DNA from: an uncultured Pseudomonadota bacterium
Lineage (GTDB): Bacteria > Pseudomonadota > Alphaproteobacteria > RF32 > CAG-239
Direction of reading: 5' to 3'
DNA length: 64,000 nucleotides
Assembly: GCA_949295025.1 (NCBI GenBank)
Contig: CASFJK010000005.1
Location: forward strand, 13,235 to 77,234
Below are positions 30,605-42,453 of the stretch, piece after piece; positions within the stretch are counted from its first letter, which is position 1, and the number at the start of each line of letters is the position of its first letter. Below the pieces are notes generated by a model. That model saw only the letters and a program-made list of their open reading frames with translations, was not told the origin of the DNA and did no database searches. The position numbers and the translations under genes were made by a program.

Positions 30605-32488
30605 TTATAACGTTAAGAGTCTTAACAAAACGTCAATAACATAAGCAATTCTGCCATCAGGCAAGGACAAAGGCAACAAAGAGGTTTGCAAAAAGAACTT
30701 TTTACCCGAAGTATAATTTTTAATACGCATACCATGCATATTCTTGTCCACATCTATTCCGTTTTGTGGCACAACATAATTAAAGAAAAGCAATAAATCT
30801 TTACCATCTAACTCTGCAGTAACCTTTTTAACCGCCCCCAAATGAACAATCTGATTTTTCCCGCCTTTATCAAAAATCGTATCAAAACCATCATACGGAC
30901 GATATAAATAAACATCATCCCCTTCACCGGCATAAAGAACATCATCGCCGGTCAGAGGAAGAAAGATATTGTCATCAAAATTTCTTCCATACAACGTATC
31001 ATTGCGAGCAGTTCCTTCATAAACCATAGTTTCAATATTTTTCAAATCTATATCATCAATGATATGCCCAATAGATTTTATTTTATCAATCGGATAAAAC
31101 TTAATAAAAGGATTTTGAGGCATAACCCAATTTCTATAAAAACTCCAAAGCATCATTTTGGTTTCAAAAGCACCGTTTTGCAGATAGTAAACTTCAACCA
31201 TTTTCCTAAAAGCACTAATTTTTTTCGAATCAATCTCCCATTTTTTGCTTTTAGAATTATAACGAATACTAAGATTTTCATAGAGCGGACTCAAAACTCC
31301 ATTTTTATCTAAAACATTTTGTAAATAGAAGTAAAAATCATCATAAGCTTTCCATATATAAGGCGAAGCGGCTCTAGTCGGATTAAGAGAAATTTCATTA
31401 CCGCTAATAGTTCCTTGATATGTTCTATTCATAAATTTTTCTAAGAAAGCCAATTTTCTGGCATCCCCTATATAATTCCAGCCCTGTTCAGAAACTCTGC
31501 TCTGCAACGGCACATCTATAACATTTGCCCAAGCATATATAATATCATTAAGTAAAGACAGACGTTTAATGGCTTTTTGTTCGTGCATATAAGAATAAAC
31601 TTTTTGCCCCAGCATGCCGGTTTCATCTTTGAAGATGGCATCTTGCAGAGCCGGTACTTTTCCAACTCCTGAAAGATTGGGAATATGAGTCAATTTCACT
31701 CCAAATTTTTCACGCGGAGCACGTTTTACCATCGGATCTTTTTGCAACCAAACTTCATAAATTTGGGATGCTGTTCCATCCGCAAATTCAACATTAATAT
31801 AATCTCCAATAATATTACCGGAACTATCTTTCTTTTGATGAGGATACACTTTTAAATCTATACTTTTGATATTTTTTAGATTTTCCTTTTGTTTACCAGA
31901 AAGTTTATTAAAATTCCAAAAAGACAATTCCGGTAAAGAAGTCCTCGGTGTATTTATCTGTTTTTTATTTCCAACTAAATGGCGCAAAATATCAAAAGAA
32001 CTCTGTTGCTCTTTCAATGGCATATCTGCAAAATAAGTTCCAATAACATGAGCCCCGTTTTTCAACTTATCCGACGTTTCATTCCATACCAAAATCACAT
32101 CATCTGCACCTAAAATTGGCATTTGCTCGGCAATTTCATCTTGATCAAAATCAAAGAACTTTTTTGGGAAGCACTTCTGCAGAGATGACAAACCGCATAA
32201 TGAAACACCGTCACCCCCAACATCCAAAACCAATATTTTTGTAAACTCATTTTCAAGCACTTCTTTTCCATTAGGCATTTTAATAAAATATCTGCGTGGC
32301 AATTTTGCAATTTTTTGAGATTGTTGACGTATAAAATCTCGTTCTTGAGAAGAGAGTTGTCGTAATGGCGCGCCTATTTTTTCAGGATTTTTAAAACAAG
32401 AGAAATACAAATCATAAATAATATATCCACCCACAATCAAAAAAACCGGAACAACAACGTTTAATAACAACAATAAAAACTTTTTCAT
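30605..32488 (-). CDS. Membrane-anchored hypothetical protein with C-terminal RTX-like calcium-binding repeats
   Basis: N-terminal TM anchor, large domain with no recognisable motif, then TGDDVLYAGEGDDVYLY...DGFDTIFDKGGKNQI. Confidence 0.45.
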   Translation of the reverse strand: MKKFLLLLLNVVVPVFLIVGGYIIYDLYFSCFKNPEKIGAPLRQLSSQERDFIRQQSQKIAKLPRRYFIKMPNGKEVLENEFTKILVLDVGGDGVSLCGLSSLQKCFPKKFFDFDQDEIAEQMPILGADDVILVWNETSDKLKNGAHVIGTYFADMPLKEQQSSFDILRHLVGNKKQINTPRTSLPELSFWNFNKLSGKQKENLKNIKSIDLKVYPHQKKDSSGNIIGDYINVEFADGTASQIYEVWLQKDPMVKRAPREKFGVKLTHIPNLSGVGKVPALQDAIFKDETGMLGQKVYSYMHEQKAIKRLSLLNDIIYAWANVIDVPLQSRVSEQGWNYIGDARKLAFLEKFMNRTYQGTISGNEISLNPTRAASPYIWKAYDDFYFYLQNVLDKNGVLSPLYENLSIRYNSKSKKWEIDSKKISAFRKMVEVYYLQNGAFETKMMLWSFYRNWVMPQNPFIKFYPIDKIKSIGHIIDDIDLKNIETMVYEGTARNDTLYGRNFDDNIFLPLTGDDVLYAGEGDDVYLYRPYDGFDTIFDKGGKNQIVHLGAVKKVTAELDGKDLLLFFNYVVPQNGIDVDKNMHGMRIKNYTSGKKFFLQTSLLPLSLPDGRIAYVIDVLLRLLTL

Positions 32489-32636
32489 GAGATATGCTCC
32501 ATATAAAGATTGTATGGCTAAGGTAGTTTTAGCACCGTTTTTCTGTTTTGAGAAGAAAGAATTGAAGTTTGTTCAAAAAAATAAAAAAATTATATTGACA
32601 AAGAAAAAATGATAAGTTATAAACTCTTTCGTTGAT

Positions 32637-32712
32637 GCCGACATAGCTCAGTTGGTAGAGCTACTGATTTGTAATCAGTGGGTCCGCGGTTCGAGTCCGT
32701 GTGTCGGCACCA
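32637..32712 (+). tRNA. tRNA-Thr (anticodon UGU)
   Basis: GCCGACATAGCTCAGTTGGTAGAGCTACTGATTTGTAATCAGTGGGTCCGCGGTTCGAGTCCGTGTGTCGGCACCA. Cloverleaf with a 7 bp acceptor stem, anticodon loop tt-TGT-aa, T-arm GGTTCGAGTCC, encoded CCA. Confidence 0.9.
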
Positions 32713-32769
32713 TCATAAAAAAGGCCTCCCATTGCGGAGGCTTTTTTATGATGATAACGCATATAGAGT
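32666..32769 (+). repeat. Direct repeat, left copy (tRNA-Thr 3' half plus terminator plus 21 bp): att-like boundary of the islet
   Basis: 104 bp that recur at 38046-38150 with one substitution and one extra T. Confidence 0.85.
32717..32748 (+). terminator. Rho-independent terminator after tRNA-Thr (GCCTCC...GGAGGC family)
   Basis: aaaaaaGGCCTCCcattgcGGAGGCtttttt. Confidence 0.7.
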
Positions 32770-33051
32770 TCTCGAACCGCGGAGGAAGCGGTTCGACTAA
32801 GAGGAGAAACAGACGGAAGTATGTTGGTGAGGGCATAGCCCGAGCGACGACGAAGCGGCGGAGCTTTAGCGACGTCAATCCTATATCTGCCCCAATTTTT
32901 AATCCATTAAAATTCAAGATTTTTTTATGTTCTTAATTTTCATCTCTTGACTTTTCAATATAAAAATATAATCTATTTTTCAATGAATTATAATTATGTT
33001 TAATCAAGAGGAACCGGTCAAATAAGCCTCTCAAAATATTCCGGTATAATT

Positions 33052-33630
33052 ATGGATGAAAAAACTATAATTTTTATCTTGCTTGGAATTTGTGCCTTTT
33101 TGTTCTGTTTTGTTTTTGTAGTCGCAATACTTCAAGGTAACCAAACAAAACGCGAGTTATCCGGACAAGCCGGCGTTTATAAAGGACCTGCCGGTGAACC
33201 AAGATGGAACGGACAATTACCGGAAAAAGTGGACGATTATGTTTGTCCTCGCTATGTTTATGAAAATCTGGTTGAAAGTACCGATTATTTACCTGAAAAC
33301 GGCAGAATTATCGGTTATCGTATCTCTCCTAGTTTAGTTATTCACAGCCGAGTACAATATTGTGTTAATTCTCCTGTTCTCAAGAGTTATATTCGGCGAT
33401 TGGGCGGAAAGTTATTAACTCCTGACGAAGTGTTAACACTATTTCATAATTGGAAAGATGTTTCAGCTTTACGCGCTAAAGCCGGAGATACAACTTTAGG
33501 CAAATTTCAGTTCTGGTGCAGTTCTAAGGAAGGGTTTCCTGTTTGTTCAAACATCAAATATGGTAACATCATTCTTGAAGATATGGTCGGGTTTACGAAA
33601 TTTAATGCCCCCCTTATCTTAAAAAGGTAA
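33052..33630 (+). CDS. Hypothetical membrane-anchored protein (islet cargo)
   Basis: N-terminal TM helix IIFILLGICAFLFCFVFVVAIL followed by a 160 aa domain with several Cys. Confidence 0.4.
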   Translation: MDEKTIIFILLGICAFLFCFVFVVAILQGNQTKRELSGQAGVYKGPAGEPRWNGQLPEKVDDYVCPRYVYENLVESTDYLPENGRIIGYRISPSLVIHSRVQYCVNSPVLKSYIRRLGGKLLTPDEVLTLFHNWKDVSALRAKAGDTTLGKFQFWCSSKEGFPVCSNIKYGNIILEDMVGFTKFNAPLILKR

Positions 33631-33684
33631 AGTAAAAGCCTCTTGTGCTAAACATTGCTCAAGAGGTTTTTTTTGCGTATTGTA

Positions 33685-34554
33685 TTAACTAAAATAAACT
33701 CCAACAACTGAAACAATGCCTAAGATGAGGGCAAAAGTCTTTCTAAGTGTAAATTTATCCATTTTAAATAACACCGATAATAAAAACACTAAGAAAATTC
33801 TCATTTGAGCAATAATCATAACCACCGTAGGAGCGTCATTTATAAAGCTAAATGTTTCTAAAACATAATACAGGCTTTCTAATATACCGATAACCAAACC
33901 TAAAAACAGTAAACTATTCCACCATTTTTTAGTTTGAGCCTCTTGTTTAGAGCTATTAGAAAAAACATTATAAGCAAAATATGGAAGCGCGAGGATATAA
34001 TAAGACAAATTTATAGCTATTTCATTGGCACCCAAACTATCAGAAGCCTTAATTAAATACGGCGCAGTAACATAAAATAGTACGGAACCGACCACCCAGA
34101 CAAATCCTTGCCGTTCCATTTCCTTAAAAGAAGTACCTTCTTTATTTAAACAATCTTTGCAGAATAAAAAAATGGAATATATGAAGATGACAAACATTAA
34201 AATAAAATATGGTGTAATCTTTATATAGCCTACAAAAGAATCAATAAACAGCGTTAAAAATAAGTTACTGCTTTCTATCAAGCCCACTAATCCGAGGGGT
34301 AAATACTCTAAAGATTTAACAAAACATATATACCCCAACAGTACAAAAACGCCATGTACCAACAAATATGGAACAGAGGCATAGGTAAACATTATCCCAG
34401 TATTTAACCCATACAATAATTGAATTACAAAGGCTATAAATGAAGTATATAAAAGGACTTTGTGGTAATTATACCTATTAACGGCATAATCTAATACAGC
34501 ATCAGAAAATGAGTTAGAAATTGTAGCAAAAACGGCTGTATATCTATAATCCAT
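33685..34554 (-). CDS. Polytopic membrane protein, likely DMT/EamA-like permease (islet cargo)
   Basis: About 10 predicted TM helices and very AT-rich codon usage. Confidence 0.4.
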   Translation of the reverse strand: MDYRYTAVFATISNSFSDAVLDYAVNRYNYHKVLLYTSFIAFVIQLLYGLNTGIMFTYASVPYLLVHGVFVLLGYICFVKSLEYLPLGLVGLIESSNLFLTLFIDSFVGYIKITPYFILMFVIFIYSIFLFCKDCLNKEGTSFKEMERQGFVWVVGSVLFYVTAPYLIKASDSLGANEIAINLSYYILALPYFAYNVFSNSSKQEAQTKKWWNSLLFLGLVIGILESLYYVLETFSFINDAPTVVMIIAQMRIFLVFLLSVLFKMDKFTLRKTFALILGIVSVVGVYFS

Positions 34555-34581
34555 TTCAACCTCTCAACGGCGATAAATTTA

Positions 34582-35037
34582 TTATCGCTTCATCCACTTA
34601 TATCCCCAATCATCTTTCTTAAAGCCGAATTTTTGGTAGATATGAATTGCTGTTGGGTTATCTGAAGAAAGAAGCAATCTTTTAATCTTCTTATTTTCTA
34701 CAAAAGCCATCAAATGAGCCATTAAATTGGTTTGTATTCCTTTAGAGCGGAATTTCTCCAGCGTAAAGACATTACAAACATAGCCATAAACACCATTATC
34801 GCAACATTGCGGCAAGGTTTTAAGAAGTGATAAACCGCAGGTGGCAATAATCGTGTCATCTTGAAATTCTGCAAAAATAAACAAATCTTTGTTTAAGTGT
34901 TCTTCCAAAAATTGCTTGGTTTGGGCAAAAAGTTCGTCATCAGAGCCTTGATAATCCTCTTGCCAATCGTCTTTTTGCTGTAATACCCTTAGATGAGATA
35001 ATTCTTCAATATGCTTATTCTCGGTTTGTATAATCAT
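34582..35037 (-). CDS. GNAT family N-acetyltransferase (islet cargo)
   Basis: VFTLEKFRSKGIQTNLMAHLMAFV (motif A region) and a C-terminal IYQKFGF. Confidence 0.6.
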   Translation of the reverse strand: MIIQTENKHIEELSHLRVLQQKDDWQEDYQGSDDELFAQTKQFLEEHLNKDLFIFAEFQDDTIIATCGLSLLKTLPQCCDNGVYGYVCNVFTLEKFRSKGIQTNLMAHLMAFVENKKIKRLLLSSDNPTAIHIYQKFGFKKDDWGYKWMKR

Positions 35038-35042
35038 AAAAT

Positions 35043-35762
35043 CTAATCCTTTTTATGAAATTTGTAAGTTTGAAAGCCGTTTTCGCAAGGAAAAGCATTG
35101 ATACATATATCGGCTTGCATTGTTTTGGGGGTAAATATACAGGCTCCGACTGTAAAGGATTTTTTTGTATCATGGGAACAGATTGAATAACCATATTTAC
35201 CATATTCGTGAGATGACAACATTTTTTTTATGTCTTCATATTTTTTGATTTTTAGTAATTTTGTTTGTGCCGATAAAAGTCTTAAATGTGAAGAATTTGT
35301 TATATCCTGCCAATTTCCCTGATTAATCAGAAGTTGACTATGATTTGTGCAAGCAAAATGGGCGACATTGGTTAAATCTGCGTAGGCTAGCTGATTGGGC
35401 GTAACTTCTATGTAAAATACATTTTTAGAATTTCCTAATAATTCTATAAATCCCATATCATACCTTTTACTTTCTTTTTGGAAAAATTCTAAAGCTTCAA
35501 AAACAGATTCAAAATTTAATAAAATATCTTTATTGATGTCGTAAGGACGTGGATTTTTTCTTTTTATGTCAGGCTCCATTGTTAGACTGACCGCAAATAG
35601 ACCATATTTATTTAAACCTTCAAAACGACCATTTTCATCTGTTATAAAAATTCCTTTTTCTGAAAAATCAACTTGCTGATTTTTTGGCATTTGTTTCAAC
35701 ATTCTATTTTTTAAATAATGGATAGTTCCTTTTTGGTCTTTCCAAAAGCCTGCAGTACACAA
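35043..35762 (-). CDS. Ntn-hydrolase superfamily protein with N-terminal Cys nucleophile (C45/acyl-CoA:6-APA acyltransferase-like) (islet cargo)
   Basis: Begins MCTAGFW... The Met-Cys-Thr N-terminus is the hallmark of bacterial C45 Ntn hydrolases, where Cys2 becomes the nucleophile after Met removal. Confidence 0.4.
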   Translation of the reverse strand: MCTAGFWKDQKGTIHYLKNRMLKQMPKNQQVDFSEKGIFITDENGRFEGLNKYGLFAVSLTMEPDIKRKNPRPYDINKDILLNFESVFEALEFFQKESKRYDMGFIELLGNSKNVFYIEVTPNQLAYADLTNVAHFACTNHSQLLINQGNWQDITNSSHLRLLSAQTKLLKIKKYEDIKKMLSSHEYGKYGYSICSHDTKKSFTVGACIFTPKTMQADICINAFPCENGFQTYKFHKKD

Positions 35763-35852
35763 CGTATTCTCTCCAGCGACATATTTTATTATTCATATTT
35801 TTAATAAATATTAAAAATATATGTTTAATATCTTCTTTATAAATCTATAACA

Positions 35853-37022
35853 ATGGACATATTAATGATTAAAAATTTAAGAATTTTTCCAATTTTTGAA
35901 ATATTTTACAGATTTACCCCTCATTTTTTAATTGCTCCTTTGTATTATCAAGAGATTTTAGGTTCATATACCTTAGCTATGGCTGTATTTTCTACAACTC
36001 TTATAAGTTGTTCTATTTCTGAAATTCCAATGGGAATCATTTCAGATTTTATTGGCAGAAAAAGAACTATTATTTTTGCCTCATTTTGTAATTTTTTTAG
36101 TTTTCTGTTATTTATTCTTGCTGGAATATTTGAACAATACTCTAATGTTTTGTGCTTTTCTGCTGCTATCGTTTTAGGATTATCTCAGGCATTATATAGC
36201 GGTACACTTGATGCTTTTATTTACGAAAGTATTAAAGCCAGCAATCAACTTGAAGATTATAATAGACTTTACAGCCGCATAAAAGGTCTTGGAGCTATGT
36301 CATCAGCGATTTCTGCTTTATTATCGGGAATTTTAAGTTATTACTATCCCTACATTATTTGTTTTTATCTATCTGGTTTTGCCGCTGTTATGACAATGAT
36401 AATTGGCTTATTTTATTATAATATAGATTATTCTTCTGCATATTTTTCATATAAAAATTTAAAAGAACACCTTAAAAACATTTATCTTTTTTATAAAAAC
36501 AATACAAAACTTCGTTGGATAAGTTTGGCTAAAATTATGGGAGATAATGTTAGTTATCGAATTGATATAATTTATTTTAAGATGTTAATTCCTGAATATT
36601 TATTAGGAACTCCTAGGATGCTGAAGAAATTTTGCGAATGTATCAGTTATATCTATGCTTCATATTTAATTGAAAAATTTAAGCCAATCGGCGTTTTGAT
36701 TATCTCAAATTCATATATGATTGCCATTCGAAGCTTGGCTATTGGATTAAACAACTTCTTATCCCCATTTATAATATCTTTGGTTGATTTATTAGACGGG
36801 ACATCTTCAACATCTTTCTCTAATTTATTACAGCATGAATATAGCGACAAACAACGAGCAACAATGGAATCTATTATAAGTATGGTATCAACAATTTGGA
36901 CATCAATATTGTTGCTATTAATTGGTATTGTAATTGATTATACAGGTGTTCGTTTTGCTTTATTCGTATTAATCATATATAGATTTATTCGTTATTTTAT
37001 TTATTATAAAGTTTTGAGATAA
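35853..37022 (+). CDS. MFS transporter (islet cargo)
   Basis: 12 TM-like segments. GIISDFIGRKRTII resembles MFS motif A. Confidence 0.55.
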   Translation: MDILMIKNLRIFPIFEIFYRFTPHFLIAPLYYQEILGSYTLAMAVFSTTLISCSISEIPMGIISDFIGRKRTIIFASFCNFFSFLLFILAGIFEQYSNVLCFSAAIVLGLSQALYSGTLDAFIYESIKASNQLEDYNRLYSRIKGLGAMSSAISALLSGILSYYYPYIICFYLSGFAAVMTMIIGLFYYNIDYSSAYFSYKNLKEHLKNIYLFYKNNTKLRWISLAKIMGDNVSYRIDIIYFKMLIPEYLLGTPRMLKKFCECISYIYASYLIEKFKPIGVLIISNSYMIAIRSLAIGLNNFLSPFIISLVDLLDGTSSTSFSNLLQHEYSDKQRATMESIISMVSTIWTSILLLLIGIVIDYTGVRFALFVLIIYRFIRYFIYYKVLR

Positions 37023-37071
37023 AAACTACAATTAAACCATATCTTAACTTGTCGGCTGTAATCATTATATT

Positions 37072-37908
37072 ATGGAATGCGAAATGATTAAAATACTTTT
37101 GGTTACAAATGAAACTTTAGGAGAAGGTGAGGATAGTTTCTTGGCTTCTTTGTTAAAAGATGATTTTATCGTTGAACTGTATGATGTTAGCCAAGATATT
37201 CCTTCAGATTGTGCCAACTTTGATATTTTCTTATTCCGAAATGCGTGGCCTGAGCGTATTTATGACAGAAAAATTAAGTGTCTTATAAATATAGCGATAA
37301 AAAATAACATAATCATCTACAATTCTCTCCAGCAAAGGAGCAAATCTTTTTCTCTCAAAAGTTATTTATATTATCTCAACGACAATTTTGATAATGTTAT
37401 ACCAACATATAAAACATTAGCGGAATTTCCAGAAAATAAAGCAGTCTTAATAAAGCCGCAAAATGGCGGTTCTTCTTACGGTGTAAAGATTTTTGCAAAT
37501 AAAAATAAGATACGCCGTAAGTTAAACAATTACATAATCCAAGAGTATATTCCTTTTGCGAAAGAACAAAGTTACTTTTTTATTGATAAAAAGTTTTGTT
37601 ATGCTCTCGAAACAATAGCCTCCGGAATGGATAACAGGTGGGAATTAAAGGAATTCGCCCCAAACAGGAAAATGCTACAGATTGCAAAATCTTTTATGAA
37701 ATGGAATAATATGCCCTATGGAATTGATAGAATCGACTTTGGCGTAACTTCCGAAGGGCTTATGCTTTTAATGGAAATTGAAAGCGACAGAAGCTATTTA
37801 AGCCTTGAGGAATTATCCAAAGATACTTTAGAGATGTTTATAAAAGAACTAAAACAATCCTTGAAAACTGTTTTTTTGCATAGTCAAAAAACTAAAAACC
37901 ACTCATAG
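37072..37908 (+). CDS. ATP-grasp fold ligase (RimK/glutathione-synthetase-like) (islet cargo)
   Basis: AVLIKPQNGGSSYGVKIF (ATP-grasp Lys and Gly-rich loop), IIQEYIPF, and C-terminal GIDRIDFGVTSEG...LMEIES Mg/ATP-binding region, in RimK-like order. Confidence 0.55.
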   Translation: MECEMIKILLVTNETLGEGEDSFLASLLKDDFIVELYDVSQDIPSDCANFDIFLFRNAWPERIYDRKIKCLINIAIKNNIIIYNSLQQRSKSFSLKSYLYYLNDNFDNVIPTYKTLAEFPENKAVLIKPQNGGSSYGVKIFANKNKIRRKLNNYIIQEYIPFAKEQSYFFIDKKFCYALETIASGMDNRWELKEFAPNRKMLQIAKSFMKWNNMPYGIDRIDFGVTSEGLMLLMEIESDRSYLSLEELSKDTLEMFIKELKQSLKTVFLHSQKTKNHS

Positions 37909-38045
37909 CTGATAAATTTTTCCCTGTAACAAGCTGATGGCAGCTTGTTTTAGCGTGGTAGCTCGGTGGTAGCTCGGCAAAAAAATCGCTAAAATTTTAA
38001 GATTAACATATTGATTTATAAAGATAATATTTTACAAGCGCAGTC

Positions 38046-38150
38046 GATTTGTAATCAGTGGGTCCGCGGTTCGAGTCCGTGTGTCGGCACCATCATAAAA
38101 AAGGCCTCCCCTTGCGGAGGCTTTTTTTATGATGATAACGCATATAGAGT
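38046..38150 (+). repeat. Direct repeat, right copy: tRNA-Thr 3' fragment (47 nt, non-functional) plus duplicated terminator
   Basis: gatttgtaatcagtgggtccgcggttcgagtccgtgtgtcggcacca...gcatatagagt. Identical to 32666-32769 except for C for A in the terminator loop and one extra T. Confidence 0.85.
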
Positions 38151-38360
38151 CCTCGCCCTACAGAGAAATATCAATATTTAAACTCATCCCCCATCTTATT
38201 AAAATTTCATTTATAAAAAAATCATCTCCCCAATATCTTGAATATTAATCAAGACATTCTATTGACAACAATCATAAAAAATGGATAAGTAAATTTATTA
38301 TTTTTTGCTGTAAAATATGTTTTATAGCCTTTGGACCAAATTTTATATGGAGAAACTTTT

Positions 38361-39659
38361 ATGAAAATAGGTATCATTGGAACCGGATATGTAGGCTTGC
38401 CAACCGGTGTTGGTCTGGCAGAATTAGGAAATCAGGTTACCTGCATAGATAGAGAAACCTCAAAAATAGAAGCTCTCCAGTCAGGAAAAATTACCTTATA
38501 TGAAGACGGCTTAGAAGACCTATTCCACAAAAATGTCAAAGAAGGACGTTTGCATTTTACAACTTCTATGAAAGAAGGTGTTGAAAATGCCGATGTTGTT
38601 ATCATAGCTGTTGGCACGCCCCCTCATCCGGTGACCAAAGAAGCCGATATGAAATATATTCATGCTGCTGCCACAGAGCTTGCCGAATATTTAACCGGAT
38701 ATACAGTCATTGCCACAAAGTCAACCGTTCCGGTTGGAACCGGAGATGTTGTAGAGGGTTTAATCTCCAAAAAAAATCCGTTTGCAGACTTTGATGTTGT
38801 TTCTTTACCTGAGTTTTTGCGCGAAGGCTTTGCCATCCATGACTTTTTTAATCCGGATCGCATCATTGTTGGCGCCAATACAGAAAAAGCAAAAAATGTC
38901 ATCAAGGAATTATACAAACCCTTTGAAGGCAAAACAAACATGTTGTTTGTTAAACGCCGCTCTTCAGAAACAATTAAATATGCATCTAACGCTTTTCTGG
39001 CCATAAAAATTCATTATATTAATGAAATGGCCAATTTCTGTGAAAAAACCGGAGCAGATATTTATGAAGTTGCGCAAGGAATGGGCTTAGATAGTCGTAT
39101 CGGACCAAAATTTTTAAATCCGGGTCCCGGATATGGCGGAAGTTGTTTTCCCAAAGACACAATGGCCATGTCATTTATGGCGCGCCAAAATGGTGTGGAC
39201 ATGACATTGATTAATGCCGCCATCAATGGCAACGTCAACCGCAAAAAACAAATGTCTGAACGCATTTTATCTGCCGTAAAATCCATAGAAAATCCGAAAA
39301 TTGCCGTTTTAGGGCTAGCCTTCAAAAATGGCACGGATGATTGTCGCGAAAGCCCAGCTATGGAAATTATCGGAGAACTCATCAACCAAGGTGCAGACAT
39401 AACCGCCTACGACCCCAAAGCTATGGGAACTGCTTGCAGAATACTTGGCAACAAAATCCAATATGCCGACAATATGTATCAAGCTCTGCAAGATGCCGAT
39501 GTCTTAGCTGTCTTAACTGAATGGAACGAGTTTAGAGAACTTGATTTAAGCAAAACAGCTGAACTGATGCGTCATAAAAAAATTGTAGATTGTCGTAACT
39601 TGCTCGACCCACAAAAAGCCAAAGATTTGGGCTTTGATTATCAAGGAATTGGAAGATAA
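38361..39659 (+). CDS. ugd: UDP-glucose 6-dehydrogenase
   Basis: N-terminal Rossmann MKIGIIGTGYVGLPTG, catalytic GGSCFPKD, central dimerisation and C-terminal UDP-binding domains. Confidence 0.85.
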   Translation: MKIGIIGTGYVGLPTGVGLAELGNQVTCIDRETSKIEALQSGKITLYEDGLEDLFHKNVKEGRLHFTTSMKEGVENADVVIIAVGTPPHPVTKEADMKYIHAAATELAEYLTGYTVIATKSTVPVGTGDVVEGLISKKNPFADFDVVSLPEFLREGFAIHDFFNPDRIIVGANTEKAKNVIKELYKPFEGKTNMLFVKRRSSETIKYASNAFLAIKIHYINEMANFCEKTGADIYEVAQGMGLDSRIGPKFLNPGPGYGGSCFPKDTMAMSFMARQNGVDMTLINAAINGNVNRKKQMSERILSAVKSIENPKIAVLGLAFKNGTDDCRESPAMEIIGELINQGADITAYDPKAMGTACRILGNKIQYADNMYQALQDADVLAVLTEWNEFRELDLSKTAELMRHKKIVDCRNLLDPQKAKDLGFDYQGIGR

Positions 39660-39683
39660 CCCCACTTATCAAAACTTAATAAA

Positions 39684-39719
39684 TAAAAAAAGGTTTGAGT
39701 TTTTCTCAAACCTTTTTTT
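39684..39719. terminator. Rho-independent bidirectional terminator
   Basis: aaaaaaaGGTTTGAGtttttCTCAAACCttttttt. Confidence 0.7.
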
Positions 39720-39734
39720 ATTTGTTCTGGAAGA

Positions 39735-40184
39735 TTAGCTTAATATTTTATCTAACTCTTCCATTTCTTTTTGATGCACAGACTTCACTCTGGCCTCTCT
39801 TTCAGCCTCTTCTTGCTGCATTTTGCGTTTCCACTCGCGCTCGTACTCTTCGGAAATTTCATCACTTGTTTTTCCTCCATACATGCGCAATAGTTTGGCT
39901 ATGGCTGGATTATCTCCCCATACGTCCAATATACGATAATAAAGAGTTTCCGTACCGGTAATCATCCCATTATCGTAGCTGTAGCTTCTTTCTACAGGGA
40001 CGCAAACAAGATTTGGATCAAAGCCCTTATCCAGAAATTTCTTCATGTTTAAGAAATCTCTCTTAGCGATAAATTCAAGAAATCTACGAACCATCTTAGG
40101 ACACTCATATGCTTTCTTTAGCTCTGAGGCATAATTCTTTTTAGCTGAGGCATAAAAAGCCTCATTCAATACTAATGTTTTCAT
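39735..40184 (-). CDS. Hypothetical protein (149 aa, charged C-terminus)
   Basis: ORF with a K/E-rich C-terminal tail. No motif recognised. Confidence 0.4.
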   Translation of the reverse strand: MKTLVLNEAFYASAKKNYASELKKAYECPKMVRRFLEFIAKRDFLNMKKFLDKGFDPNLVCVPVERSYSYDNGMITGTETLYYRILDVWGDNPAIAKLLRMYGGKTSDEISEEYEREWKRKMQQEEAEREARVKSVHQKEMEELDKILS

Positions 40185-40496
40185 AATTTTTATTTTTTTA
40201 GGGAAACATCAAGCTTTTCCCTTAGATTACAATAATAACCTACGACTATTAAATGCTTGAAAAATAGCAATAGGCCGATAATAATTTCTTTGTAACACAT
40301 TTATATCATCTTTTTTGTCTATTGTCTATATATTTTTTTATTGCTCTTTACGATGTTAAAATATAATTACTTTTTTATCCTTTAAAATTTCAAGAAAGGC
40401 TCAAGGCTTAATCGCAAATAAGTTGACAAAACTTTCAAAACAATATATTTTTGTCTATAGAGCAAATATAATTATAACTAAAAAAAATATACAATT

Positions 40497-41069
40497 ATGA
40501 AAATTTTTAAAAGTTTTTTTGCAGCAAAAAAACGCCGTGCTGAAATGAAAGAATATCAAGCACAGATTGATGTGTTAGAAGAAAAAGTTTCTGATTTTAT
40601 TTATGACAAGAGTGGTAAATACCACCCTATTCCTCGCATAGATTTGACTGAAAGATTGCCTGAGCTCATCTTGAGTAAAGATGATGCTGTCAATTTTTTT
40701 GCAAAGTTTCTGGGAGAAAAAATAAACCCTTATGAGGTTTCTTTGGTCAATCTCACAGAAGCATATGGTAATCATGCCAGCAATCTGTGTTGGGTTTACA
40801 GAAGCTTTTTGGTAAACTTAACAAAAGGCGAATATGGTTATTACTCGGAAAGAATGTTTTCGAAACTTGTCATCATTGATAAAGGTTTCAACATTCCGGT
40901 TGCGGCATACACCGACCTGAGAGTCCTCGTTCGCGGTGAAGAAATTTTCCCAATTGACATTATTTATGATGAATGGGGAGAAGTAGAGCACATTGAAAAG
41001 ACATTAAAAGTCTATTCAGCCCAAACGCCTATGAGCAAGGTGCTGGAAGACATAAAAAAACTTTCATAA
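40497..41069 (+). CDS. Hypothetical protein (190 aa)
   Basis: ORF followed by a GCCTCC...GGAGGC-family terminator at 41068-41099. Confidence 0.4.
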   Translation: MKIFKSFFAAKKRRAEMKEYQAQIDVLEEKVSDFIYDKSGKYHPIPRIDLTERLPELILSKDDAVNFFAKFLGEKINPYEVSLVNLTEAYGNHASNLCWVYRSFLVNLTKGEYGYYSERMFSKLVIIDKGFNIPVAAYTDLRVLVRGEEIFPIDIIYDEWGEVEHIEKTLKVYSAQTPMSKVLEDIKKLS

Positions 41070-41413
41070 AAAAAGCCTCCAATCGCGGAGGCTTTTTTTG
41101 ATTACAAACTATTCCTAGGGCAAGATTGGACGAGAACTTTCTTCCAGTTTTTTAGTTTTTTTGTTAAAAACCACCCCTTCTGTATGAAAAAAATTTTCCG
41201 GATGTTTTTTAGCTTGCCACAAATCACAAAATTCATACCAAGCAAAAATCAACTTTTTGATACACCATACAGACAAAACCCCGCAGATAGTCGTCAATAA
41301 AATTTTACTCAATAATACCATAAGCTTAAATTTTATAATTATAACAATACGTAATTATCATAATAAAAATGTTTTACGAAATCAATATAACATAATCTTT
41401 TAATTTAAACACT

Positions 41414-41442
41414 TGACAATTTTAATATATTACATATATAAT
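41414..41442 (+). promoter_or_regulatory. Sigma70-like promoter (TTGACA-17-TATAAT) for the 41477 ORF
   Basis: ttgaca at 41414-41419, 17 nt spacer, tataat at 41437-41442, about 35 nt upstream of the ATG. The surrounding spacer is extremely AT-rich. Confidence 0.45.
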
Positions 41443-41476
41443 ACATATATATTATTAAATATATTGGAGACTTGCC

Positions 41477-42052
41477 ATGAAAAAAATTGAAAATGTCAAA
41501 GAGTTTGTGGAGAAGATAGACAGCGCCAAAAAAGTCAATCCCAAAGACCTGTCTTCTGACCAAGATTTAACCATCGCCATCATGAACCTTATCAGCATTG
41601 AAGAACACCTTGTTTTCTCTGGCGCCAAAACCGGAAAAAATTCTTTTTACGATTTGGTACAAAACATTCGTGAAATGCGCAAAACCTTGATGCAAAAAGT
41701 TATTCCGGCTTATGAAGGCGAAGTCTGGTGCATATCCAAACATTTGCTGGCTTCTTCCATGCGTTTGATGGAGGTTGGCACCAAGCAACAATCTTTAGGT
41801 CACAAAGAAGAAGCCTACAAACTTTTCAACCAAGCCTATGAGCTTTATTGTCTGTTCTGGGGCTTGAATATGAATATGTTAAACGTCGCAGATGTAAAAT
41901 GGATTGAAGATAAAACCGAAGACATGAAAAAACTTTCAGAAAAAATTGATGCCAACATCCCTAGCACACCTGAGGTTTCAGAAGAAAAAACCGGTACGTT
42001 GTCCAAGATGAAAGCTTTTGCCAGAAAAGCGGTTGACTGCTGCATAGAATAA
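41477..42052 (+). CDS. Hypothetical protein (191 aa)
   Basis: ORF with the RBS GGAGAC upstream. No motif recognised. Confidence 0.4.
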   Translation: MKKIENVKEFVEKIDSAKKVNPKDLSSDQDLTIAIMNLISIEEHLVFSGAKTGKNSFYDLVQNIREMRKTLMQKVIPAYEGEVWCISKHLLASSMRLMEVGTKQQSLGHKEEAYKLFNQAYELYCLFWGLNMNMLNVADVKWIEDKTEDMKKLSEKIDANIPSTPEVSEEKTGTLSKMKAFARKAVDCCIE

Positions 42053-42063
42053 GGAGAAAACAA

Positions 42064-42453
42064 ATGAACAAAATCATCTTTGCTTTTGCATTAGGGCTGT
42101 TTGTCCTCACCGGTTGCGATAATCAAACCCAAACGGAAAGCACGGCTCAAACCGCAAGTGAAAAATCCGCTTTTTCAGAAAATAAAATCTATTTTTTCTA
42201 TTCCAACTATTGCCCGCACTGCCACGCAGCATTGAAATATATCAAAGCCAAGCACCCCAATTTAGAGTTATCCATGGTCAATGTTGAAAATGCCGGTGGT
42301 TATAAACTCCTTGTGCAAGCGGTAAAAGAATATAAAATCAACGGCAGTTCTGTCGGCACTCCGCTTCTGCTCATGGGCAAAAATTATCTGATGGGCTGGG
42401 CTCCGGAATATGAAACCCAATTTGAAAATTATGTTCAGCCTTTTGTAAAATAA
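42064..42453 (+). CDS. Thioredoxin-fold lipoprotein (CxxC)
   Basis: Lipobox LFVLTGC. FFYSNYCPHCHAALKYIK is a thioredoxin/glutaredoxin-like CPHC active site. Confidence 0.5.
   Translation: MNKIIFAFALGLFVLTGCDNQTQTESTAQTASEKSAFSENKIYFFYSNYCPHCHAALKYIKAKHPNLELSMVNVENAGGYKLLVQAVKEYKINGSSVGTPLLLMGKNYLMGWAPEYETQFENYVQPFVK

Follow-up and report, generated by a model that had tools for sequence, protein, structure and literature searches.

The DNA analyzed here is a 64-kb window (64,000 nucleotides, referred to throughout as the window) from an uncultured Pseudomonadota bacterium (CAG-239, RF32, Alphaproteobacteria; GCA_949295025.1, CASFJK010000005.1:13,235-77,234), in which a tRNA-Thr(UGU) gene and the ugd gene are separated by six open reading frames (ORFs) lying between two copies of the 3′ half of the tRNA gene and its terminator (Table 1). 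An earlier reading of this locus, to which we refer as the original prediction, described it as a decayed integrative islet lacking an integrase. Based on the comparisons presented below, we consider it likely that the two copies are the attL and attR sites of a phage-derived family of tyrosine-integrase elements that inserts at tRNA-Thr(UGU), and that the window holds an integrase-less islet resembling a cis-mobilizable element (CIME), in which the far-end cargo of such an element, a cassette of five genes, forms a composite with one further gene, denoted here as gene 1.

tRNA and other RNA genes were sought with ARAGORN and Rfam, proteins were assigned with Pfam and NCBIfam, defense systems were sought with PADLOC, and the structure of the ATP-grasp protein was modeled using AlphaFold2. 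Labels of the form L001 to L129 denote contigs and assemblies from public collections used for comparison, and the host comparison set consists of the 80 closest ugd loci from species-representative genomes, nearly all of which are from uncultured gut Alphaproteobacteria (human, ruminant, mouse and rabbit samples).

Organization of the tRNA-Thr Locus

Table 1. Features of the tRNA-Thr(UGU) locus, with positions given in the window
Feature	Position	Strand	Basis
Intact tRNA-Thr(UGU), proposed integration target, attL side	32637..32712	+	ARAGORN (tgt); Rfam RF00005, 71.3 bits
Left direct repeat (proposed attL): 47-nt core, native-type terminator GCCTCCCATTGCGGAGGC with T-run, 21 further bp	32666..32769	+	alignment
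GC-rich (45%) spacer, only in this strain	32770..32940	.	BLAST matches only same-strain contigs; starts with GAACCGC..GCGGTTC hairpin
Promoter TTGACT-17-TATAAT and ~65-nt leader upstream of gene 1	32941..33051	+	conserved in relatives
Gene 1: 192-aa protein, N-terminal hydrophobic stretch (read from the sequence)	33052..33630	+	no Pfam, NCBIfam or PADLOC match
Gene 1 terminator and cassette junction	33636..33673	+	homology boundaries
Cargo cassette, five genes and right arm	33663..38045	.	97.7-98.5% identity to copies in at least three other contexts; 30.4% GC
EamA/DMT-family transporter, 289 aa	33685..34554	-	Pfam PF00892, E = 4e-9
GNAT N-acetyltransferase, 151 aa	34582..35037	-	Pfam PF00583, E = 4e-13
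C45/AAT-type N-terminal nucleophile (Ntn) hydrolase or acyltransferase, 239 aa	35043..35762	-	Pfam PF03417, E = 1.5e-12
MFS transporter, 389 aa	35853..37022	+	Pfam PF07690, E = 4.5e-18
ATP-grasp ligase, 278 aa (other gene calls start at 37084)	37072..37908	+	weak ATP-grasp domain match; AlphaFold2 fold match
Conserved right-end arm ("P arm"), ~127 bp	37919..38045	+	91-94% identity to elements with quite different cargo
Right direct repeat (proposed attR): displaced nonfunctional 47-nt tRNA-Thr 3′ fragment (38046-38092), terminator, 21 further bp	38046..38150	+	alignment
ugd (UDP-glucose dehydrogenase), right chromosomal flank, outside the element	38361..39659	+	Pfam; 80 orthologous loci

The direct repeat was the starting point of the original prediction, and alignment of positions 32600-32800 with 37980-38200 bears it out, as its two copies are the same except for one substitution (A/C) in the loop of the terminator and a single additional T in the T-run. 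The 47-nt core, which runs from the anticodon loop (GATTTGTAA...) to the CCA end (32666-32712), is identical in both copies and occurs exactly twice in the window, against an expectation of 0; beyond the CCA, the repeat holds the GCCTCC..GGAGGC terminator and then 21 bp, after which similarity fades over ~18 more nt (11/18 positions) to 32787 and 38168. ARAGORN finds a single intact tRNA-Thr(tgt) and does not call the fragment at 38046-38092 as a tRNA, in keeping with the predicted pairing of one intact gene with a nonfunctional 3′ fragment ending in CCA, and an Rfam E-value scan of positions 32000-39000 found only the tRNA.

Both junctions are spanned by scaffolds from other samples at ~99.9-100% identity, namely L083 (29918-36550) and L085 (36452-41596), both from ERZ16268070, and L087 (from 38024), from ERZ17292902, showing that the structure is real and not a misassembly. 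The contigs of a unitig-style assembly from another run end exactly at the repeat (L001, L082 and L086), as is expected for a 104-bp duplication.

The intergenic gaps between the six ORFs of the interval are short (at most 282 bp) and thus leave no room for an integrase pseudogene. Searches of these six ORFs with Pfam, NCBIfam and a custom tyrosine-recombinase hidden Markov model (HMM) returned no recombinase or transposase, in agreement with the original prediction. The custom HMM, which was built from 5 sequences only and is correspondingly limited in sensitivity, gave no match even at E ≤ 100 when run on all six-frame ORFs of the window, and Pfam searches of ten large unannotated ORFs in the window likewise found no recombinase. 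We also considered, and rejected, a unit bounded by a transposon or insertion sequence: terminal inverted repeats are absent, as palindromic terminators account for the only inverted matches between the ends, and no transposase domain was found.

The claim that the entire 5.3-kb interval is AT-rich and forms one unit of six genes holds only in part. The five-gene stretch at 33663-38045 has the lowest GC content (30.4%) of all 4.4-kb segments of the window, for which the median is 37.3%, but the gene 1 unit (36%) and the spacer at 32770-32940 (45%) do not share this composition. Similarly, six ORFs are indeed present, but the conserved mobile unit comprises only the five at 33663-38045, with gene 1 being separate from it.

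Recurrence of the Cassette in Other Species

The cassette is not confined to this genome. On contigs encoding 97%-identical relatives of the ATP-grasp protein, window positions 33663-38139 are present in at least three further settings, at nucleotide identities of 97.7-98.5%. In the first (context A; L100-L107, 97.7%), the gene order is nitroreductase, CrcB, intact tRNA-Thr(tgt), cassette, 47-nt fragment with terminator, Lactamase_B and LysR, such that in another species, too, an intact tRNA-Thr and its displaced fragment flank the cassette, as the attL/attR footprint proposed for the window leads one to expect. The second (context A′; L103 and L104) differs from the first in that a second copy of the cassette right end (window 37919-38131) is found to the left of the cassette, itself preceded by a distinct element X that carries DUF3768 and AbiEii genes. 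This is a tandem array (X, att, cassette, att), showing that accretion happens in relatives; no tRNA fragment was seen at the left end of element X in L104 and L108. In the third (context B; L108-L114, 98%), the order is DUF3768, a 233-aa protein, N6_Mtase, a 206-aa protein, cassette, 47-nt fragment and aldo-keto reductase.

Housekeeping genes of the same hosts are far more diverged, with identities between the window and L108 of 67.5% for an ABC transporter and 68.7% for CNNM, and between L100 and L108 of 75.9% for the aldo-keto reductase. Set against these values, the ~98% identity of the cassette indicates recent movement between hosts diverged at the species level. The cassette genes are intact, and the ratio of nonsynonymous to synonymous polymorphism (pN/pS) is 0.11 in comparison to L100 and 0.08 in comparison to L108. 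The cassette is thus under purifying selection and its cargo is not decaying. The term "decayed" in the original prediction therefore remains appropriate for the recombination machinery, which has lost its integrase and, on the attL side, retains the inverted arm repeats only in degenerate form, but not for the cargo.

The copies also differ in their terminators. In L100, the terminator adjacent to the tRNA gene is of the element type (GTTTTCAAACCTCC...), and the native-type terminator has moved to attR, matching the prediction of the classical integration model. In the window, the native-type terminator is found in both copies of the repeat, which is why this repeat is 104 bp long and exceeds the 47-nt core of the other cassette copies.

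Natural variants of the cassette were observed as well. L109, L111 and L113 lack the Ntn-hydrolase and the MFS transporter (35076-37018) and keep the EamA, GNAT and ATP-grasp genes. The variant in L129 (2853-7120), at the same tRNA-Thr, has lost the right arm and the fragment, and a different 272-aa gene replaces EamA; here the ATP-grasp gene is followed by ATAGAGTTCTCGAACTGCGGAG, a sequence that spans the right boundary of the left repeat in the window.

A Right-End Arm Shared with Integrase-Bearing and Prophage Relatives

In every context, the cassette ends in the same ~127-bp arm, beyond which lies the 47-nt core. Two GGTAGCTCGG repeats stand in tandem in this arm (37957-37966 and 37968-37977), at positions -89 and -78 relative to the core start. 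Scanning public collections for this repeat pair yielded seven more loci, in all of which the repeats are found at -89/-78 from the core, whatever the cargo; arm and core with this fixed spacing thereby recur in nine or more elements of differing cargo.

These relatives include elements that still encode an integrase. In L123 and L128, a tyrosine integrase of 397 aa with Arm-DNA-bind_3, SAM-like and Phage_integrase domains is followed by a methyltransferase and Abi_2 and then by the arm and core. In L122, an IMG/VR viral contig, tail genes (GpJ-type) and methyltransferases precede the arm and core. The right-flank DNA of L122 and L123 is 99.5% identical, indicating that one site in one species holds either a prophage or a minimal island. 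Taken with the context A copies, this common arm in integrase-bearing and prophage relatives upholds the assignment of the repeats as an attL/attR footprint at tRNA-Thr.

The left side of such elements can be seen in L124 and L125, where the intact tRNA-Thr and its terminator are followed by two inverted GGTAGCTCGG copies at +138/+151, then by an ORF that retains only the arm-binding domain of the integrase, and then by cargo, arm and core. We infer that the GGTAGCTCGG repeats are probably the binding sites of the arm-binding domain of the integrase. In the same two loci, attL and attR are similar for ~250 bp past the core, so that long repeats extending beyond the tRNA are a trait of the family, into which the 104-bp repeat of the window fits.

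A further arrangement was observed in two genomes, in which the 5′ half of a tRNA-Thr gene (nt 1-38) is present as an orphan with a promoter of its own and, followed by a GGTAGCTCGG pair, lies ~200 bp upstream of an intact tRNA-Thr (1691-1728 and 1849-1870 in L124; 512-549 and 366-395 in L126). The tRNA of the window is matched at 100% identity by the orphan half in L126, but at just 79% by the intact tRNA there. This suggests that the orphan halves reflect events in which the 5′ half of the tRNA was displaced, a rare class of island.

Gene 1 and the attL-Side Spacer

Gene 1 has a distribution of its own. It belongs to a clade-wide family of at least 166 homologs (96-44% identity) and is absent from the cassette in other genomes. 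In L063, it directly follows tRNA-Thr, with no repeat anywhere in 21 kb, and in L109 and L111 it lies ~230 bp after the displaced tRNA fragment; its other contexts are the end of a prophage (L088), positions beside variable restriction-modification, HipA or Fic islands (L092-L099), and a position before priA (L089). The window matches L088 as far as 33673 and the other cassette copies from 33663-33667 onward, so that gene 1 and the cassette are joined within the T-run of the terminator of gene 1; the left boundary of the cassette follows other terminators in contexts A and B. As gene 1 is not part of the cassette elsewhere, and follows tRNA-Thr or its fragment in relatives, the element in the window is a composite of the cassette and a fused clade-wide gene.

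The prophages that carry these features are themselves related: L088 (1-9870) and L122 (2500-7860) share tail and lysis genes at 65-79% nucleotide identity, and end at gene 1 and at methyltransferases with arm and core, respectively. These differing ends suggest that gene 1 may sometimes be phage cargo.

Between the left repeat and the gene 1 promoter, the spacer at 32770-32940 contains no intact GGTAGCTCGG repeat, and aligns weakly with the attL-side spacer that bears the inverted GGTAGCTCGG copies in relatives (alignment with L109, L111 and L063). We read it as probably a degenerate remnant of a P′ arm. Right after the left repeat is a hairpin with a perfect 9-bp stem (32771-32797; TCGAACCGC/GCGGTTCGA, with the 7-bp core GAACCGC..GCGGTTC), the arms of which repeat the tRNA T-arm segment CGCGGTTCGA, one in inverted and the other in direct orientation.

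The leader of gene 1 (32985-33051; ..ATGTTTAATCAAGAGGAACCGGTCAAATAAGCCTCTCAAAATATTCCGGTATAATTATG) is 86-100% identical across species, compared with 53-86% for the proteins. Copies of it are also found in L063, L006, L088, L089, L092-L099, L109 and L111, with two in L088 (9923-10000 and 12409-12494), the second of which precedes a different gene. As judged from its sequence, the leader could form a pseudoknot (GAGG/CCTC and CCGG/CCGG) or encode a 9-codon upstream ORF (MFNQEEPVK); it has no Rfam match, shows no folding signal (z = +0.43) and shows no covariation among 7 distinct sequences.

Proposed Origin of the Element

Taking these observations into account, we propose that a family of tyrosine-integrase elements, comprising a temperate phage and small islands, would target the anticodon-loop region of tRNA-Thr(UGU). 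Its members carry a P4-like integrase with an arm-binding domain at the tRNA side and variable cargo at the far end, and terminate in the ~127-bp arm with its two GGTAGCTCGG repeats and the 47-nt core. One such element, or an array of several, would have occupied tRNA-Thr in the lineage of the window, where only the far-end cargo, the arm and attR survive, the integrase and the rest of the DNA between attL and the cassette having been lost. This outcome could have been reached by deletion between terminator T-runs within an element array, which would have removed the integrase and the interior and fused the gene 1 unit to the cassette. It could also have been reached by aberrant excision that captured the flank, with the product reintegrating at a naive site upstream of ugd. 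The position of the gene 1/cassette join in a terminator T-run makes one of these two routes the most likely source of the composite, and the two are not distinguishable from each other. With its right arm and both cores intact, its integrase gone and its left arm degenerate, the element is immobile on its own, and CIME-like movement, in cis or in trans, would occur only via a related integrase-bearing element landing at the same tRNA.

Several observations weigh against this proposal. No integrase was found within 10 kb of any copy of the cassette, in a search that could not take in the rest of the source genome. The left boundary of the cassette is the same to the base in three contexts, always after a terminator T-run, which fits a discrete exchangeable cassette better than it fits independent deletions. 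The similarity of the spacer to the attL-side arm is weak, and the status of gene 1 is ambiguous, given that in L088 it ends a prophage, which is the usual position of cargo. Finally, no empty attB and no circular (attP) junction was found for any cassette copy in the assemblies examined, so that we infer excision and integration, and current mobility is unproven. An empty attB would read as the tRNA 5′ half (..GGTAGAGCTACT) joined to the 104-bp repeat and CCTCGCCCTACAGAGAAATATC, and a circular attP as 38010-38045 joined to the core, the terminator and the sequence from 32770 onward.

The empty site put forward in the original prediction, in which tRNA-Thr would be directly followed by ugd, was likewise found neither in the 80 related ugd loci nor in any same-strain assembly. 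None of these 80 relatives shares the DNA upstream of ugd with the window, and only L063 among them has a tRNA-Thr(tgt) near ugd, 6.7 kb away and in the opposite orientation. The same-strain contigs, retrieved by exact-protein look-ups of the 627-aa left neighbor and of ugd, are all occupied or broken at the repeat, and the long contigs of the L100 species anchored on CrcB are all occupied.

Among the alternatives, the one that fares best is a single 5.3-kb element of six genes that integrated in one step into tRNA-Thr upstream of ugd, through an attP with 104 bp of identity, and later lost its integrase; we nevertheless consider this improbable. The repeat does bracket exactly this interval, and the ~250 bp of attL/attR similarity in L124 and L125 makes long blocks of identity a trait of the family. 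However, in none of the 15 other cassette loci does homology reach to the left of 33663-33667; it begins there, or further in if the contig or copy is truncated. In addition, gene 1 comes from a large clade-wide family found in many other contexts. Furthermore, an integrase remnant would not fit into the 282 bp that separate attL from gene 1, and the arrangement of tRNA-Thr directly followed by ugd was not found in the 80 relatives.

Somewhat less probable again is that the cassette is a block of phage cargo (a "moron") spread by homologous or short-homology recombination between prophage ends, with the tRNA fragment as a passenger that was not used for integration in this lineage. The base-exact left boundary behind terminator T-runs and the lack of a nearby integrase would both suit such a history, as would L108, in which the cassette is placed between a prophage-type methyltransferase region and the arm. 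Against it, both the window and L100-L107 show the arrangement predicted for integration, with an intact tRNA-Thr on one side of the cassette and the fragment, in direct orientation, on the other, and the flanks differ between contexts, so that two-sided homologous replacement cannot have moved the cassette between them. An assembly or binning artifact, or a local duplication unrelated to mobile DNA, could be argued from the unitig-style contigs that break at the repeat, but is effectively refuted by the other-sample scaffolds across both junctions and by the same architecture in many unrelated assemblies. We retain the reading of the window element as an integrase-less, CIME-like composite.

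Cargo Genes and Their Possible Function

Among the cargo proteins is the ATP-grasp ligase, whose family is very rare (7 clusters among 5.8 billion proteins). Its AlphaFold2 model is confident, with a predicted local distance difference test (pLDDT) score of 85.5, and its best fold matches in the PDB are the ATP-grasp ligases DcsG, ArgX/LysX, PsnB and RimK; sequence searches of the PDB were uninformative for both this protein and the Ntn-hydrolase. Homologs at 60% identity (P0125 and P0126) lie in a conserved part of the core genome that lacks the other four genes, and so are uninformative on mobility.

The Ntn-hydrolase matches only the C-terminal (mature) part of its proenzyme model (NCBIfam NF040521, positions 143-312 of 313) and starts with M-C-T. 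Based on these two features, its nucleophilic Cys is predicted to be exposed without a propeptide, which would need just the removal of the initiator Met. Bile-salt hydrolases likewise expose their catalytic Cys by removal of the initiator Met. The GNAT protein gives weak NCBIfam matches to resistance acetyltransferases, every one of them below the cut-off. PADLOC returned no defense-system match for any of the six proteins of the interval, and sibling elements that share the arm carry Abi_2, AbiEii and methyltransferases.

One could speculate that the cargo set serves the synthesis, processing and export of a small molecule. With an ATP-grasp ligase beside an MFS exporter and a possible self-protection GNAT, the cassette may bear comparison with dipeptide antimetabolite clusters of the bacilysin/tabtoxin type. 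The best structural match of the ATP-grasp protein, DcsG, is an antibiotic-pathway enzyme, in line with this comparison; however, the cassette has no sequence-level membership in a characterized cluster, and contains in addition the Ntn-hydrolase and a second (DMT) transporter. As a further and rather unlikely possibility, the cassette may be a self-contained unit that produces, processes and exports the small molecule of a very rare ATP-grasp ligase, with the GNAT protein providing self-protection. Such a unit would now be spreading between species of gut Alphaproteobacteria as cargo or satellite of a tRNA-Thr-targeting phage family, surviving without an integrase and still collectable by a passing relative via its intact right arm.

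Other Features of the Window

Two further regions of the window drew our attention. The first (1-8350), beside tRNA-Met (8271-8347, - strand), is a possible further island, and contains ORFs for a class A beta-lactamase-like protein (6781-7656) and a GNAT (7671-8207), together with several that have no family match, one of them 521 aa long (4802-6367). The second is an AT-rich stretch (32% GC) of small hypothetical genes at 39660-41476, located between ugd and a pair of genes encoding 191-aa and 129-aa proteins (41477-42453), homologs of which lie between ugd and tRNA-Thr in L063.

Comparison with Known Elements

In the standard signature of a tyrosine-integrase island, the tRNA gene is restored on one side, its 3′ fragment is displaced to the opposite end, and the crossover is of the anticodon-centered ("A") class (PMC4383910). 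The element in the window resembles such islands in having an intact tRNA at one end and, at the other, a 3′ fragment displaced from the anticodon loop in direct orientation, and it also shows signs of horizontal origin (lowest GC content; 97.7-98.5% identity compared with 67.5-75.9% for housekeeping genes). The Islander definition of an island in a tRNA gene (tDNA) demands an integrase gene inside the island (PMC4383910), and the window element differs in having none, as well as in an identity block that extends at least 57 bp past the tRNA.

Another parallel is provided by CIMEs, which PMC5704250, citing Pavlovic et al. 2004 and Bellanger et al. 2011, describes together with tandem accretion at tRNA genes for Streptococcus thermophilus elements related to ICESt1. 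Like a CIME, the window element keeps attL and attR without integration and transfer genes, the attL-side arm repeats being degenerate, and it has an att arm and core in common with the integrase-bearing L123 and L128 and the prophage L122; tandem accretion is seen in its relatives L103 and L104, but not in the window itself. It differs in that its parent family appears to be derived from a phage rather than a conjugative element, that its attL-side arm is degenerate, that it is fused with a gene that normally flanks the tRNA, and that its mobilization is predicted rather than observed. A prophage remnant with moron cargo by attR offers a third comparison, as the arm and core are common to the IMG/VR prophage L122 and the cassette in L108 sits in a cargo slot; the window element, however, has no phage structural, lysis or regulatory gene left.

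Conclusions

The structure in the window is that of a textbook tRNA-linked islet with att repeats that has lost its integrase, and the understanding of such elements is unchanged by it. What it provides is the definition of an integration hot spot at tRNA-Thr(UGU) in poorly studied, uncultured gut Alphaproteobacteria, with a recognizable att architecture for this site, consisting of the 47-nt core and an arm with two GGTAGCTCGG repeats. For callers of genomic islands, it also carries the caution that the interval between the repeats here combines cargo with a flanking gene that was either captured or left behind. Within this setting, one cargo cassette has been shown to move between hosts diverged at the species level while under purifying selection, and it contains a rare ATP-grasp ligase cluster that is possibly worth expressing.

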